Positions 24,001-27,000 of a stretch of 35,104 nt of DNA are shown here, in pieces (within the stretch, counting starts at the first letter, position 1; every line of letters starts with the position of its first letter). Source of the DNA: Actinobacteria bacterium UBA7524 (GTDB taxonomy: Bacteria > Actinomycetota > Coriobacteriia > Anaerosomatales > UBA912); assembly GCA_002478275.1 (NCBI GenBank), contig DLMY01000053.1:90347-125450 (forward strand), read 5' to 3'. Made by a program: the position numbers.

Positions 24001-27000
24001 GGCGGCGAGATCTGGTTCGAGGAGATGCAGGTCAACGACCGCCACACGAACATCAACAAGGTCCGCGAGCGCATCGGGATGGTGTTCCAGTCCTTCAACC
24101 TGTTCCCGCACCTGACCGCAAAGGGCAACGTGATGCTCGCTCAGCGAAAAGTCCTCAAACGCTCGAAGCATGAGGCTGAGCGCATCGCGGTCGAACAGCT
24201 CACTCGCGTGGGGCTAGCCGACAAGATCGACAACTTCCCGGTCCAGCTCTCCGGCGGCCAGCAACAGCGTGTCGCGATCGCCCGTGCTCTGGCGATGGAC
24301 CCGCACGTCATGCTCTTCGACGAGGTCACCTCGGCGCTCGATCCCGAGCTGGTGCGTGGAGTACTCGATGTCATGAAGGAACTGGCCCGGGGCGGCATGA
24401 CGATGCTCGTCGTCACCCACGAGATGGGTTTCGCCCGCGACGTGGCCGACAGGGTCGTCTTCATGGACGAGGGCGTCATCGTCGAGCAAGGCACGCCAGA
24501 GGAAGTATTCGATAATCCGCAGCATGAGCGGACGAAGGATTTCCTCGGCCATATCAGTTAGCCGCTGCGCCGCGAGATCAGCTGCAGCGGGCACGGTCGC
24601 AATCCGCTACCATGGGTATCTTCTACGTACGGACCATCTCACAAGGAGGAAGTCATGGACATGATCATCAAGGGCCGTCACATGGCGGTCACAGAGCCCA
24701 TCCGTGACTACGCGCAGGAGAAGATCGGCCGCGTCACCAAGATCATCGACGGTGACCACATGAAGGCGGAAGTAGAGCTGTACGCCGAGAGGAATCCGGC
24801 CATCGAGAACGGGCACGTCGCCGAGGTCACCGTGTGGACCAAGGGGCCCGTGATCCGTGCGAAGGAAGCATCGACTGACATGTACGCTGCGATCGACCTG
24901 GTATCTGAGAAGCTCGAGACGCAGTTTCGCAAGTACAAGGGCAAGAAGATGGACCGGTACTCCGGCAAGCACATGCCGCCGCCGCTGCCGGTGACCGAGA
25001 TCCTGGAGCCCGAAGAGACCGAGCCGAGCATCGTCAAGACGAAGTCCCCCGCCGTCAAACCCATGACTGCCGAGGAAGCCATCTTGCAGCTGGAGCTGCT
25101 CGGGCATGACTTCTTCGTGTTCACGTCAGCGGAGACGGAGCAGGTCAGTGTGTTGTATCGGCGCAACGACGGCGACTACGGACTGATCGAGCCTCGGGTG
25201 AGCTAGTCCGTCAGGAGCGCTCAGGGGTTTCTGTTGCTGTGGCGGGCCTTCGGGTCCGCCACAGTGGTTCTCGGGTGGGGCGGGAAGTATCACCTGCGAA
25301 GTGCGCTTTCACTGTGACGAATAGCACAATACGACGGAATACGGTAATCTTCCTGCAAGCCCTTGAAACTCAGTCGTAGCAGATGCCGCAGCAGTACTAC
25401 CGCCGAAGCAAACAGGGGGGCCCCGATGGACCAGCAGACATCTCGGCTATCCGTTGAGGATATCGAGATCACACTCGGGCAAGTCGCCGAGATCAAGGCC
25501 GCGCGCGTGGTCGCCTCTCCAGAAGGTGTGATACAGGAGATCCACGTACTCGCGCTCCCGAACAAGACTCCCAAGCAGCTGGTCAGGGACATCGAATCCA
25601 CTTTGATGGCGACATACGGTCTTGTCGTCGACCACAAGAAGATCTCCATCGCACAGCTCGGTACCGACGTTGTGGCGATCGAACCCGAGCCGTCCCAGCC
25701 TGTTCAGTCACGCGCTCGTATCGTCGAGATCAACGCGAACGTCAACGGCGCGTATGCGGCCGTGGCCGTCACGCTGAAGCTCGAGCACGACGTGTATGTC
25801 GGCGAGGCTTCGGGCCCCGCGAGTCAGACGGGCCGCATGCGACTGTTGGCGCGTGCGACACTTGACGCGGTCGATCAGTATCTGCATGGTACGTATAGCT
25901 TCGATCTTGAAGACGTATCGATCATTCAGCTTGGTAAGGAGAGGGTCGCAGTCTCCTGCATCACGATCGTCACCCCGATGGGGGAGCAGTCGTATGCGGG
26001 CTCGGCGCTCGTGAGACAGAATGAGAAGGATTCCATAGTTCGGGCGACGCTTGATGCGATAAACCGTCGCCTTGGCTGCTTGACAACCACATAGACGATT
26101 TCGGCCAGGGCCAACGCCGTGTGCAAATCAGAAGACACTGTACGCAACAAACCGAGCGGAGCGGACAGCGTTCTTCCATTACTAGCGGAATGGGAGAAGA
26201 CCACAGTTCCAAGAGGGAGGTCTTCTCAACATGAAGCGAATCATATTTCTCCTCAGCTCGCTCGCAGCGGTTCTTTACGCTGGCGGGGCGATGGCGCGAC
26301 TTTAGTCATTCCAGTCATGAGCAGGTTGCAGCGGTTGGCCCTCAGTTTCCGTGAAGAAGGAGTGGAGTCATGAGAGTCAGACTCTACTCCTTCTTCGTGT
26401 TCTTGGTTGCATGCTGCGCGGTTGTGGCTCTGTACCTTCGGGAACCGTTGCCTGACTTTCGTCTGGTACTTGTCATGGGGATCATGGCATTGGCCGCTGA
26501 GTCACTGGCCTTCAGGCTACAGCATGGCGGCACCGTGTCACTCATGTTCGCAGTTGCCTTTGCTGCCGTGCTATTGGGTGGACCGACTGCCGGAGTCGTG
26601 GTGGCAGTTGCAGGAGCTGCGCCACCGGCGGACTTCATTGAGAGGAAGCCAGCGTATGCGATGCTATTCAACCTGTCGCAGCTCGCTCTTGGGGCCGCTG
26701 GCGCTGGGACGGCGTATCAGCTTCTTGGGGGAGTACTGTTGTATCAGCCGGGCGTTTCTCCCCCGCCCGTAACTCAGTGGATAGTGGCCGCGCTTCTTGC
26801 CGCTCCCATCTACGCTTTGATCAACTTGGGATTGGTCACGGTTGCGGTATCCCTGAAATGCGGCCTGCCCTTGTCCACTGTCTGGAAGAGCTATCAGGCC
26901 TACTACGTCAGGAGCCTCCTGCCCCTGACGTTGCTTGGACTGGTGCTGGCACAGCTGATCGCGGTTGCTGGACTGCCCTATGCTCTGCTCCTCCTAGTCC

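Follow-up and report, generated by a model that had tools for sequence, protein, structure and literature searches.

Structured leaders ahead of genes for c-di-GMP turnover are known from the c-di-GMP riboswitches of classes I and II, Rfam RF01051 and RF01786, and control at the ribosome site is common among both classes. The glutamine-II riboswitch ('Downstream-peptide' motif) is a conserved structured RNA directly before a very short ORF, and the guanidine-II riboswitch (mini-ykkC) displays one short motif in several hairpin loops by a masked ribosome site. Among repeat-motif operators, CsrA binds GGA and TRAP binds (G/U)AG repeats, at targets with at least three motif copies of variable spacing and number near the ribosome site. 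The hok and aapA1 mRNAs are kept inert by long-range pairing and a masked ribosome site, and type I toxin mRNAs (hok, tisB, aapA1) encode a small hydrophobic peptide, are closed by a long-range helix and have their Shine-Dalgarno sequence masked. MgrB with PhoQ is a case of a tiny single-pass peptide encoded beside a membrane sensor.

We compared with these systems a locus in the window, the whole 35,104-nucleotide stretch of DNA analysed from Actinobacteria bacterium UBA7524. Here, too, a structured leader precedes c-di-GMP turnover genes, but its motifs and architecture differ from those of the c-di-GMP riboswitches and cmscan gave no match. The glutamine-II riboswitch occurs in other phyla and has no Rfam match here, where the short ORF heads a membrane-signalling operon inside an outer helix. 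Guanidine-II has ACGR tetraloops, whereas the loops here have 8-14 nt with UAGCGG, one motif copy is base-paired, the motif number is variable and Rfam again gave no match. The operators of CsrA and TRAP have a cognate protein; here CsrA was not found in 21 relatives, and the product of the neighbouring gene X is without a clear RNA-binding fold. Unlike hok, tisB and aapA1, the unit has a fixed operon place across phyla and a conserved peptide, and no antisense gene was seen; an MgrB-like binding of the peptide to MASE9 or DUF5317 is hypothetical. Literature searches on HD-GYP, MASE9, DUF5317 and Anaerosomatales, judged from the search results alone, returned no description of the RNA or the peptide.

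Gene order, spread and coding content

The features of the locus are collected in Table 1. The leader lies where the earlier note had placed it, and its fold beats 200 of 200 shuffles (z -3.9), in line with the structured, conserved nature claimed for it. The second copy reported on contig C12 is real (C12:7090-7247, minus strand; 76% identity, 106.8 bits with the covariance model). Of the order's 101 genomes, 81 gave a blastn match to window positions 26100-26320, among them 66 of the 73 high-quality ones; the matches have 73-96% identity and cover 20 of 25 families, in agreement with the 20 families noted before. The sequence conservation of the leader is extreme, enough to break metagenome assemblies. 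As also noted earlier, Rfam 15 holds no relevant family (E<=10 for the window, E<=1 for class 2, E<=5 for Bacillota). A claimed absence from other Actinomycetota did not hold up, because diverged copies scoring 8-43 bits with the covariance model occur in a second Actinomycetota class (class 2). Further diverged copies were found in Bacillota, for example in Desulfosporosinus, and the unit spreads far beyond the order.

Table 1. Features of the locus, numbered by position in the window
Feature	Position	Strand	Sequence	Remarks
Gene X, 222 aa	25426-26094	+		always directly upstream of the RNA
P0 5' arm	26108-26121	+	GGGCCAACGCCGUG	begins 14 nt past the X stop codon; pairs with 26329-26341
Leader RNA	26132-26235	+		conserved RNA without Rfam match
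P1 5' strand	26134-26145	+	GACACUGUACGC	from fold and alignment
Two tandem AGCGG	26155-26164	+		first in the P1 loop, second within the P1 3' strand
P1 3' strand	26161-26173	+	GCGGACAGCGUUC	from alignment across two classes
Pyrimidine tract Y1, 5' strand of long P2	26171-26180	+	UUCUUCCAUU	last 5 nt form the short P2 stem
P2 loop	26181-26188	+	ACUAGCGG	holds the third AGCGG (26184-26188)
P2 3' strand	26189-26198	+	AAUGGGAGAA	last 5 nt common to P3
Purine tract X, P3 5' arm	26194-26202	+	GAGAAGACC	pairs with Y1 or the P3 3' arm
Shine-Dalgarno region of small ORF	26211-26220	+	AAGAGGGAGG	last two G in P3; from sequence and alignment
P3 3' arm	26219-26227	+	GGUCUUCUC	ends 3 nt ahead of AUG
Small ORF, 24 aa	26231-26305	+	MKRIIFLLSSLAAVLYAGGAMARL	predicted single-pass membrane peptide
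P0 3' arm	26329-26341	+	CAGCGGUUGGCCC	23 nt past the small ORF stop codon
P4, 19-bp hairpin	26351-26398	+		HD-GYP Shine-Dalgarno in 5' arm, AUG (26370) in loop, codons 4-10 in 3' arm
MASE9-HD-GYP phosphodiesterase	26370-27659	+		HD at residue 282, GYP at 343
Second, weaker HD domain protein	27580-28851	+		
DUF5317 protein	28852-29412	+		

Comparison among relatives showed the fixed gene context that the earlier note had described. A gene X homolog lies upstream of the element in all 63 complete loci and an HD-GYP homolog downstream in 61, the contigs of the remaining two ending 124 and 188 nt past the small ORF, and high-quality genomes of the order that are without the RNA are also without X (5/5). 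The order X, RNA, small gene, HD-GYP recurs in 25 of 28 class-2 loci, where the enzyme was MASE9-HD-GYP in each of eight tested, and in 25 of 29 loci of Bacillota. Of 401 genomes sampled from the phylum of Desulfosporosinus, 163 have X, and in Desulfosporosinus acididurans a DUF5317 gene also follows HD-GYP. X can serve as a marker of carriers, with 2125 clusters in the 50% library. According to a preprint on HD-GYP domains, ligand binding by MASE9 is likely to take place within the membrane, and the only MASE9-containing protein studied was poorly expressed (10.1101/2021.11.05.467447).

The product of gene X belongs to no Pfam or NCBIfam family, and a search of its profile against PDB sequences gave a PNPase match at E 0.3 and nothing else. 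Folding of the single sequence was poor (pLDDT 39.6), and we therefore used an alignment-based AF2 model (pLDDT 91.6), in which the N-terminal domain is predicted to be ferredoxin-like and the C-terminal half to resemble the regulatory domain of citramalate/isopropylmalate synthase (Z 10.1). The predicted folds point to small-molecule-binding domains; no clear RNA-binding fold was seen in the model. CsrA, tried as a binder, was found in none of 21 relatives, with control genomes positive.

No promoter-like or terminator-like site was found between X and the small ORF, so that the element is probably intercistronic. The earlier note had read it as a leader; the structured RNA stands, but its position is probably within the operon transcript, after X, and not at the transcript 5' end. 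A TTGACA at 26080-26085 was rejected as a promoter, having no -10 partner and being part of the conserved C-terminal codons of X. Neither strand of 24400-26700 showed a promoter-like site from which an antisense RNA could start, and no terminator was found downstream of the small ORF.

The small ORF, which had been proposed as a 24-codon gene missed by the gene caller, starts in all 81 loci with a core match and is complete at 24-26 aa in 67, while 14 run off the contig end. Its entropy at codon positions 1, 2 and 3 is 0.84, 0.24 and 1.48, a coding-type substitution pattern that bears the proposal out. Purifying selection, an intact frame, a start codon (ATG, GTG or TTG) and a Shine-Dalgarno sequence were found across relatives, and despite DNA divergence two phyla share one peptide family, MKxIxxxLxSLxALVLxGGAxx(K/R)x. 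By this pattern the small ORF is a genuine protein-coding gene; Pfam and NCBIfam hold no family for its peptide, a probable partner of two membrane-embedded proteins, MASE9-HD-GYP and DUF5317. For the leader itself, a protein-coding reading was ruled out, its loop indels not being multiples of three.

Helices, AGCGG motifs and the ribosome site

MAFFT alignments spanning classes proved unusable for column-wise pair counts. Since loop lengths shift the stems, we dropped these counts in favour of per-sequence helix finding with shuffled flanks and an alignment fitted to the model structure. In the fitted alignment (17 sequences, two classes), which is biased toward that structure, 20 of the 24 pairs of P1-P3 change on both sides, and 85% of cells are paired against 46-53% when the partners are slid. 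Across the two classes both-side changes affect all eight outer P1 pairs and seven of the nine P3 pairs. P1 comprises GRAC...GUUC on the outside and, further in, pairs that involve the second AGCGG; Y1 overlaps the P1 3' strand by 3 nt. In 35 of 43 sequences, drawn from three lineages, the P2 hairpin with its UAGCGG loop outdoes 95% of the shuffles of its flanks, and the three lineages keep this loop on unrelated stems.

AGCGG is present three times in the window. Over 62 sequences the columns of the tandem pair vary little or not at all, and the tandem motifs are retained in class 2 and Bacillota. The two Actinomycetota classes share one fixed architecture. In Bacillota the pairing partners differ: the strand of the ribosome site pairs with the last AGCGG repeat in Desulfosporosinus or with a distant GUAAAGU in another subgroup. 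In Desulfosporosinus, A-runs separate tandem GAGCGRAGCGG units, the last of which is paired to the ribosome-site spacer. Bacillota carry between 1 and 5 AGCGR motifs, and this variable number, like the variable partners, is unlike a fixed aptamer. The locus combines a conserved fold with covarying helices and conserved unpaired nucleotides, as seen in riboswitches, with a repeated short motif in a loop or single strand near the ribosome site, as seen in protein operators.

The leader and the small ORF are together enclosed by an outer helix, P0. Both-side changes were found in 12 of its 15 pairs (for example AU 31 / GC 24), none of 500 shuffles reached any of the measures, and 92% of its cells are paired against 36-52% with slid partners. 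RNAalifold recovered P0 independently in class 1 and in class 2. A duplex-energy shuffle test did not single it out in class 1 (median z -0.4), this test being non-discriminating for P0 and least of all discriminating in GC-rich class 1; by sequence comparison, the support for P0 is covariation. These results revise the earlier picture of a three-helix element of about 104 nt with thin covariation support (three pairs): the core (26132-26235) and the covarying P1, P2 and P3 remain, but P1 is longer than described, P0 had been missed, the whole unit including P0 measures about 235 nt, and compensatory changes now back the helices.

Downstream, P4 has a computed energy of -34.9 kcal/mol in the window and reaches -33 kcal/mol or lower in 37 of 60 class-1 loci with unrelated sequences, by a hand count; it was looked for in class 2 and not seen there. 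P4 first came to notice through microRNA-like matches in the Rfam search.

The 3' arm of P3 ends 0-3 nt ahead of the start codon in most sequences. Alternative pairings are possible because P3 shares the purine tract with the lower P2 stem: helices found per sequence showed that the P3 5' arm has 5-8 nt in common with the P2 3' strand, but in several class-2 sequences the overlap is just 0-2 nt and both helices could coexist. The three tracts change together, as in the locus L105 (GCUUUCC / GGGAAGUAGACC / GGUCUACUUUC). Computed energies in the window are -27.3 kcal/mol for the masked state and -21.0 kcal/mol for the open state. Within the order the inner helices are near invariant and the two folds fit equally well, the masked fold pairing 96.4% and the open fold 97.6% of cells. 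Shuffling the upstream part makes the ribosome site more accessible in 45 of 54 sequences. The difference is modest (median unpaired probability 0.27-0.35 for the native and 0.38-0.41 for the shuffled sequences), and only 14 of the 54 are less accessible than all 15 of their shuffles. As in an expression platform, a helix masks the ribosome site and a competing pairing is possible, although this thermodynamic check shows a modest effect.

A candidate mechanism and its rivals

We consider it on balance probable that the region of about 26108-26341 is one folded domain of the operon mRNA, which acts in cis to control translation of the small ORF through AGCGG motifs read by an effector. The mRNA would carry gene X, then P0 enclosing the leader and the small ORF, then MASE9-HD-GYP, the second HD protein and DUF5317. 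Three helices make up the inner part, namely a P1 hairpin that bears GAGCGGAGCGG, a P2 hairpin with UAGCGG in its loop, and P3, and this part would set how often ribosomes initiate on the small ORF. P3 would pair the stretch from the Shine-Dalgarno sequence to the AUG with the purine tract, which could alternatively pair with the upstream pyrimidine tract to form the lower P2 stem. As the pyrimidine tract overlaps the P1 3' strand, the state of P1 and its AGCGG motifs could pass to the ribosome site. We infer that an effector reads the three AGCGG motifs and shifts the balance between the masked state, calculated as the more stable one in the window, and the open state. Whether the effector would be a small molecule, making this a riboswitch, or a protein is roughly an even choice. 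A more specific version, possible but doubtful, is that the leader supplies both aptamer and platform in a riboswitch class, new and ancient, common to Actinomycetota and Bacillota, which would sense a signalling nucleotide or related metabolite, c-di-GMP being the obvious candidate, and gate translation of a hitherto unseen 24-aa subunit of a four-part membrane system of X, peptide, MASE9-HD-GYP and DUF5317.

Long double-stranded stems, P0 and P4, flank the unit as in an RNase III stalk, with cleavage being hypothetical. The region might accordingly be a constitutive processing or stability element that works with no effector, P0 (and P4 in class 1) being cut by RNase III or forming a stability barrier that uncouples X from the downstream membrane proteins and keeps the latter low. 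P0 is long and reaches from just past the X stop codon to just short of the HD-GYP ribosome site, many class-1 loci have P4 as a near-perfect hairpin of 16-20 bp covering the start of HD-GYP, and the unit seems to lie inside a transcript. A processing role, however, gives no reason for the constancy across two phyla of some 50 nucleotides that are unpaired or in loops, and of three AGCGG motifs, when the stems themselves vary freely, and P4 is missing in class 2. We regard this explanation as unlikely.

Release of the P0-closed domain as an independent or dual-function small RNA, acting in trans with AGCGG as seed or protein-sponge sites, would accord with the assembly-breaking conservation, the repeated motifs and the relatives' copies on high-word-depth contigs of one small RNA library. 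The conserved helices, however, stop where the small ORF has its ribosome site and start codon, the element is strictly linked to the same neighbour genes, and a promoter or terminator of its own was not found; we think this quite improbable. A type I toxin-like transcript, with the peptide as a membrane toxin and the mRNA inert through P0 and the masked ribosome site, seems hardly credible. The peptide is hydrophobic with 24-26 aa, a long-range helix encloses its ORF and the ribosome site is masked, but the peptide sequence is conserved across two phyla, and each genome has a single copy of the gene, always at the same point of a conserved operon. Neither the terminator nor the antisense promoter-like site sought above was found, and the fixed single copy differs from the stand-alone, patchy or multicopy distribution of type I toxin-antitoxin loci, which have an antisense RNA.

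Under the favoured reading, control of small ORF translation in cis, the unit is probably a control element, so far undescribed, of an enzyme system that degrades c-di-GMP. If so, it would be a strongly conserved regulatory RNA, present in the 81 of 101 sampled genomes of the order, and the 24-26-residue membrane proteins would form a new family missed by gene callers. RNA and peptide would have a fixed genetic link to MASE9-HD-GYP, DUF5317 and the X family of about 215 aa, none of which has, to our knowledge, a known input signal, and would offer a handle on the control of a widespread, poorly understood c-di-GMP phosphodiesterase. Cultured carriers exist in Desulfosporosinus acididurans M1 and Acididesulfobacillus acetoxydans, which makes bench work feasible.

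Copies from relatives were seen on metatranscriptome contigs (4 runs, 4 studies), in the conserved core only and with DNA carry-over possible; such contigs show neither strand nor transcript ends, and their uncovered parts mean nothing. One small RNA library has contigs of high word depth that carry relatives' copies.

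The locus and its conservation within the order

On the plus strand of the window, both the conserved leader sequence and the 24-codon frame, opened by an ATG and closed by a stop codon, were found where an earlier note had placed them, between a gene for a 222-aa protein (X) and a MASE9-HD-GYP gene.

Features of the locus, numbered along the window
Feature	Position	Strand	Remark
raiA RNA (RF03072)	20234-20475	+	157 bits; gathering score 101
hpf	24655-25206		upstream neighbour
X, 222 aa	25426-26094	+	without Pfam or NCBIfam family
P0 5' arm	26108-26121	+	just past X stop codon
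Conserved leader sequence	26132-26235	+	sequence read
Small ORF, 24 codons	26231-26305	+	ATG at 26231; sequence read
P0 3' arm	26329-26341	+	just past small ORF stop codon
Hairpin over HD-GYP start	26351-26398	+	-34.9 kcal/mol
MASE9-HD-GYP	26370-27659	+	HD at residue 282, GYP at 343
Second, weaker HD protein	27580-28851	+	downstream neighbour
DUF5317 protein	28852-29412	+	downstream neighbour
1107-aa protein, AAA/NB-ARC + TPR + BTAD domains	29438-32761	+	directly after operon

Of the order's 101 genomes, 81, among them 66 of the 73 of high quality, matched 26100-26320 in a blastn search, at 73-96% identity and in 20 of 25 families; a 49-nt core often exceeded 90% identity. The core was present in 81 of the 86 fetched loci, and in all 81 the small ORF began with MK(R)...; 67 of these frames were complete, at 24-26 aa, and 14 ran off the contig. 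A homolog of X preceded the element in 63 of 63 complete loci and an HD-GYP homolog followed in 61, the remaining two contigs ending too early. The source names of the X homologs point to Coriobacteriia/Anaerosomatales, and X was likewise missing from five of five RNA-less high-quality genomes of the order. Covariance model R1, run over 151 genomes of the class, found the element in 65, all from the window's order, and in none of 83 genomes from other orders.

The genome holds two copies, that of the window and C12:7090-7247(-) on a second contig, at 76% identity. By manual count, 23 of 86 matches (about one quarter) lay within ~350 nt of a contig end, as happens when a near-identical stretch is shared by co-occurring species, and copy numbers from these assemblies are therefore not to be trusted. 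The conserved core seems to break metagenome assemblies, and apparent second copies need care. Some match pairs resemble one split locus (contigs C22/C57 of genome G034, C24/C20 of G058), and the peptide of the C12 copy is closest to those of family f19.

Distribution beyond the order

The earlier note had found the element absent from other Actinomycetota, which did not hold. A profile of X, run against the phylum, matched 83 of 301 genomes and opened the way to a second class (class 2; the window's class, Coriobacteriia, is class 1), whose genomes are small and low in GC, with X at E<=1e-40 in 28 of 48. The module followed X in 25 of these 28 loci, five of the 25 being cut by contig ends, and was missing from L117, L132 and L139. 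It consists of a 5' arm of the outermost helix P0 (GGACCGACAUC-like), AGCGGAGCGG, a hairpin with a UAGCGG loop, a helix covering the ribosome site, the small ORF (e.g. MKARILMTLVALASLILAGGAGSRMG) and the 3' arm of P0, and MASE9-HD-GYP came after it in 8 of 8 loci tested. High-GC homologs of X (loci L115-L126) had different neighbours; L126, from a genome flagged unpublished, carries no positive claim. In two class-2 loci, L097 and L131, extra GC-rich hairpins stand between P0 and the AGCGG motifs, and the leaders are more than 100 nt longer than the rest.

With a distant X homolog as query, we reached Bacillota loci in a Peptococcaceae MAG, Desulfosporosinus acididurans M1, Peptococcaceae bacterium CEB3 and Acididesulfobacillus acetoxydans. 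All four carried X, MASE9-HD-GYP and the small ORF (product in D. acididurans: MSKLLKAITVLVTLVLAGGASFRI), P0 (UGGCCGAC/GUCGGCCA), tandem GAGCGRAGCGG-type units with A-runs between them, and a ribosome-site helix formed with the last unit (GCGGUUAAAC/GUUUACCGC). The D. acididurans operon (L174, 3229-6073, minus strand) reads X, small ORF, MASE9-HD-GYP, DUF5317, and is without the window's second HD protein, which makes DUF5317 a partner conserved between phyla. In the phylum to which Desulfosporosinus belongs, X was present in 163 of the 401 genomes sampled, and the best 29 loci had the small ORF in 25 (two cut by contig ends) and none in four. L159 and L168, from the phylum of genome G506, have an X homolog followed by a gene whose product starts MEVLKVSAHSNPKS..., presumably resembling SpoVS, and no module; L153 has two tandem X paralogs.

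The small gene, the helices and the ribosome site

The column entropies at codon positions 1/2/3 (codons 2-20) were 0.84/0.24/1.48 in 63 class-1 sequences and 1.05/0.55/1.64 in 18 class-2 sequences, and arginine codons alternated between CGN and AGR. Frame, length (24-26 aa) and Shine-Dalgarno sequence were all conserved, and the start codon in other lineages was ATG, GTG or TTG. This coding-type pattern upholds the claim of a missed gene: judged from sequence, the small ORF is a gene. Its product runs from a basic N-terminus through a single hydrophobic helix and an invariant GGA-type motif to an aromatic/basic tail (M-K-x-[IL]-x3-[LV]-x-[SA]-[LI]-x-[AT]-L-[VI]-L-[AS]-G-G-A-x-[FWY]-[KR]-x), and matched no family in Pfam or NCBIfam. 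Since the stretch from X to the small ORF showed neither a sigma-70-like promoter nor an intrinsic terminator in the window, L148 or D. acididurans, the element, on this layout, is probably intercistronic. Core copies of relatives were found on RNA-library contigs (four runs, four studies), with a word depth of ~65 on three contigs of one small library; these contigs are compatible with expression and do not prove it.

At -35.9 kcal/mol, the 116-nt stretch folded better than every one of 200 dinucleotide shuffles (z -3.9). The sole Rfam 15 matches at E<=10 were microRNA-like, on a hairpin farther downstream, and one snoRNA-like (E 2.6), with no relevant family for the window's element; no matching family was found in class 2 or Bacillota either, in line with the claimed absence from Rfam. 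Alignment pair counts also bore out the claim that the inner helices P1, P2 and P3 are nearly invariant inside the order, where the only freely covarying inner pair closes P2 (CG 31, UG 13, UA 12). Two alternative folds fit the order equally well (97.6% and 96.4% of cells paired), the second having a 10-bp P2 (UUCUUCCAUY/RAUGGGAGAA) into which P1's 3' end and P3's 5' half are drawn. For the window, we computed -27.3 kcal/mol for P1+P2+P3 and -21.0 kcal/mol for the long P2 with a 4-bp P3 remnant.

P0, absent from the earlier note, has complementary arms after both stop codons and spans the leader and the entire small ORF. RNAalifold recovered it unaided from the 63 class-1 sequences and again from class 2 alone (12 pairs). 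In the class-1 MAFFT alignment A1, 12 of its 15 pairs changed on both sides (e.g. AU 31/GC 24, AU 31/GC 22, AU 30/GC 20); for the whole structure, 92% of cells paired versus 36-52% with partners slid, and 0 of 500 shuffles reached any measure. In many sequences the pairing is extended inward by unrelated sequence. When duplex energies were tested against shuffles, P0 did not stand out in GC-rich class 1 (median z -0.4), where this test discriminates least; the support for P0 is therefore comparative, not energetic.

Across classes, we aligned 17 sequences (4 class 1, 13 class 2) with a covariance model and found both-sided changes in 20 of 24 pairs (outer P1 8/8, P2 5/5, P3 7/9), with 85% of cells pairing versus 46-53% slid and 0 of 500 shuffles reaching any measure, in an alignment that is fitted to the model structure and so biased toward it. 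As an alignment-free check, we took the best ungapped helix around the AGCGR loop of each sequence and shuffled the flanks. The helix had a median of 7.5-10 bp. Among 43 sequences, drawn from three lineages, it was better than 95% of the shuffles in 35, and its stems were unrelated in sequence (CCAUC/GAUGG, CUUUCCAA/UUGGGAAG, CGACCG/CGGUCG, CCGUUUC/GAAACGG, CUGCCGGU/GCCGGUGG).

P3 is placed alike in the two Actinomycetota classes: its 3' arm lies right behind the Shine-Dalgarno sequence and ends 0-3 nt before the start codon. Its purine-rich 5' arm shares 5-8 nt with the 3' strand of P2 in most sequences, and the upstream pyrimidine tract overlaps P1 by ~3 nt. The three tracts covary between lineages: UUCUUCC / GGGAGAAGACC / GGUCUUCUC in class 1, GCUUUCC / GGGAAGUAGACC / GGUCUACUUUC in locus L105, UUUUC / GAAAAGAG / CUCUUUUC in L138 and UCUUUCC / GGAGAGAAG / CUUUUCUC in L133. 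This layout is probably that of a translational switch, in which P1 would compete with the lower P2 stem and the latter with P3. In Bacillota the partner of the ribosome-site strand is instead the last AGCGG unit or a distant GUAAAGU, the latter pairing closing the whole motif domain, and the platform thus appears rebuilt in each lineage. Common to the lineages are a paired ribosome site, P0, the UAGCGG hairpin and the AGCGG motifs, of which there are typically three (range 1-5). Positions -14 to +3 were computed to be less accessible than with the upstream part shuffled in 45 of 54 sequences, a modest effect (0.27-0.35 versus 0.38-0.41).

In the window, the HD-GYP start is itself predicted to be locked in a very stable hairpin, where codons 4-10 base-pair with its Shine-Dalgarno sequence and its AUG occupies the loop. 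By manual count, 37 of 60 class-1 loci had such hairpins, of unrelated sequence, at <= -33 kcal/mol, and none were seen in class-2 loci. The hairpin may thus be an RNase III site or add a further level of control over translation.

Candidate effectors and the kind of element

The element probably acts like a ribosome-site-masking riboswitch or protein operator. Invariant unpaired nucleotides on covarying stems are riboswitch-like, and the c-di-GMP phosphodiesterase of the operon suggests a nucleotide ligand; a repeated motif of variable number and spacing, at a single locus per genome, looks more like a protein operator. X is the obvious effector candidate by linkage. Its predicted model (pLDDT 91.6) has a ferredoxin-like N-domain (Z 8-9 to ANL C-subdomains, CDF transporter C-terminal domains and BolA) and a C-terminal half similar to the amino-acid-binding regulatory domain of citramalate/isopropylmalate synthase (LeuA; Z 10.1, rmsd 2.9 over 109 residues), and its matches to double-stranded-RNA-binding domains were weaker. 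Since the motif traits point both ways and the predicted fold of X is not clearly RNA-binding, we consider a metabolite and a protein about equally probable as effector of the AGCGG motifs. A structured leader with a small membrane peptide could also be read as a type I toxin mRNA, which the element resembles in form only; its fixed operon position across phyla argues against that reading, which we hold to be very improbable.

Judged from listings of the literature, no paper was found to describe either the RNA or the peptide, and the only relevant text was the description of MASE9 in an HD-GYP preprint. The results indicate that the RNA and the small protein each form a new family of a known kind; the RNA/peptide module is real, occurs widely and can be tested in cultured carriers.

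CsrA, considered as reader of the motifs, was not found in 21 relatives, and the positive control worked. The X family is large and unnamed, with 2125 clusters at 50% identity. Right behind the operon, the 1107-aa protein is a large ATPase-type transcriptional activator. The raiA RNA lies ~6 kb upstream of the element in the window, and at the class-2 locus L133 a cut raiA match and then a cspA-like gene lie just upstream of X, so that this orphan RNA neighbours the module in two classes.
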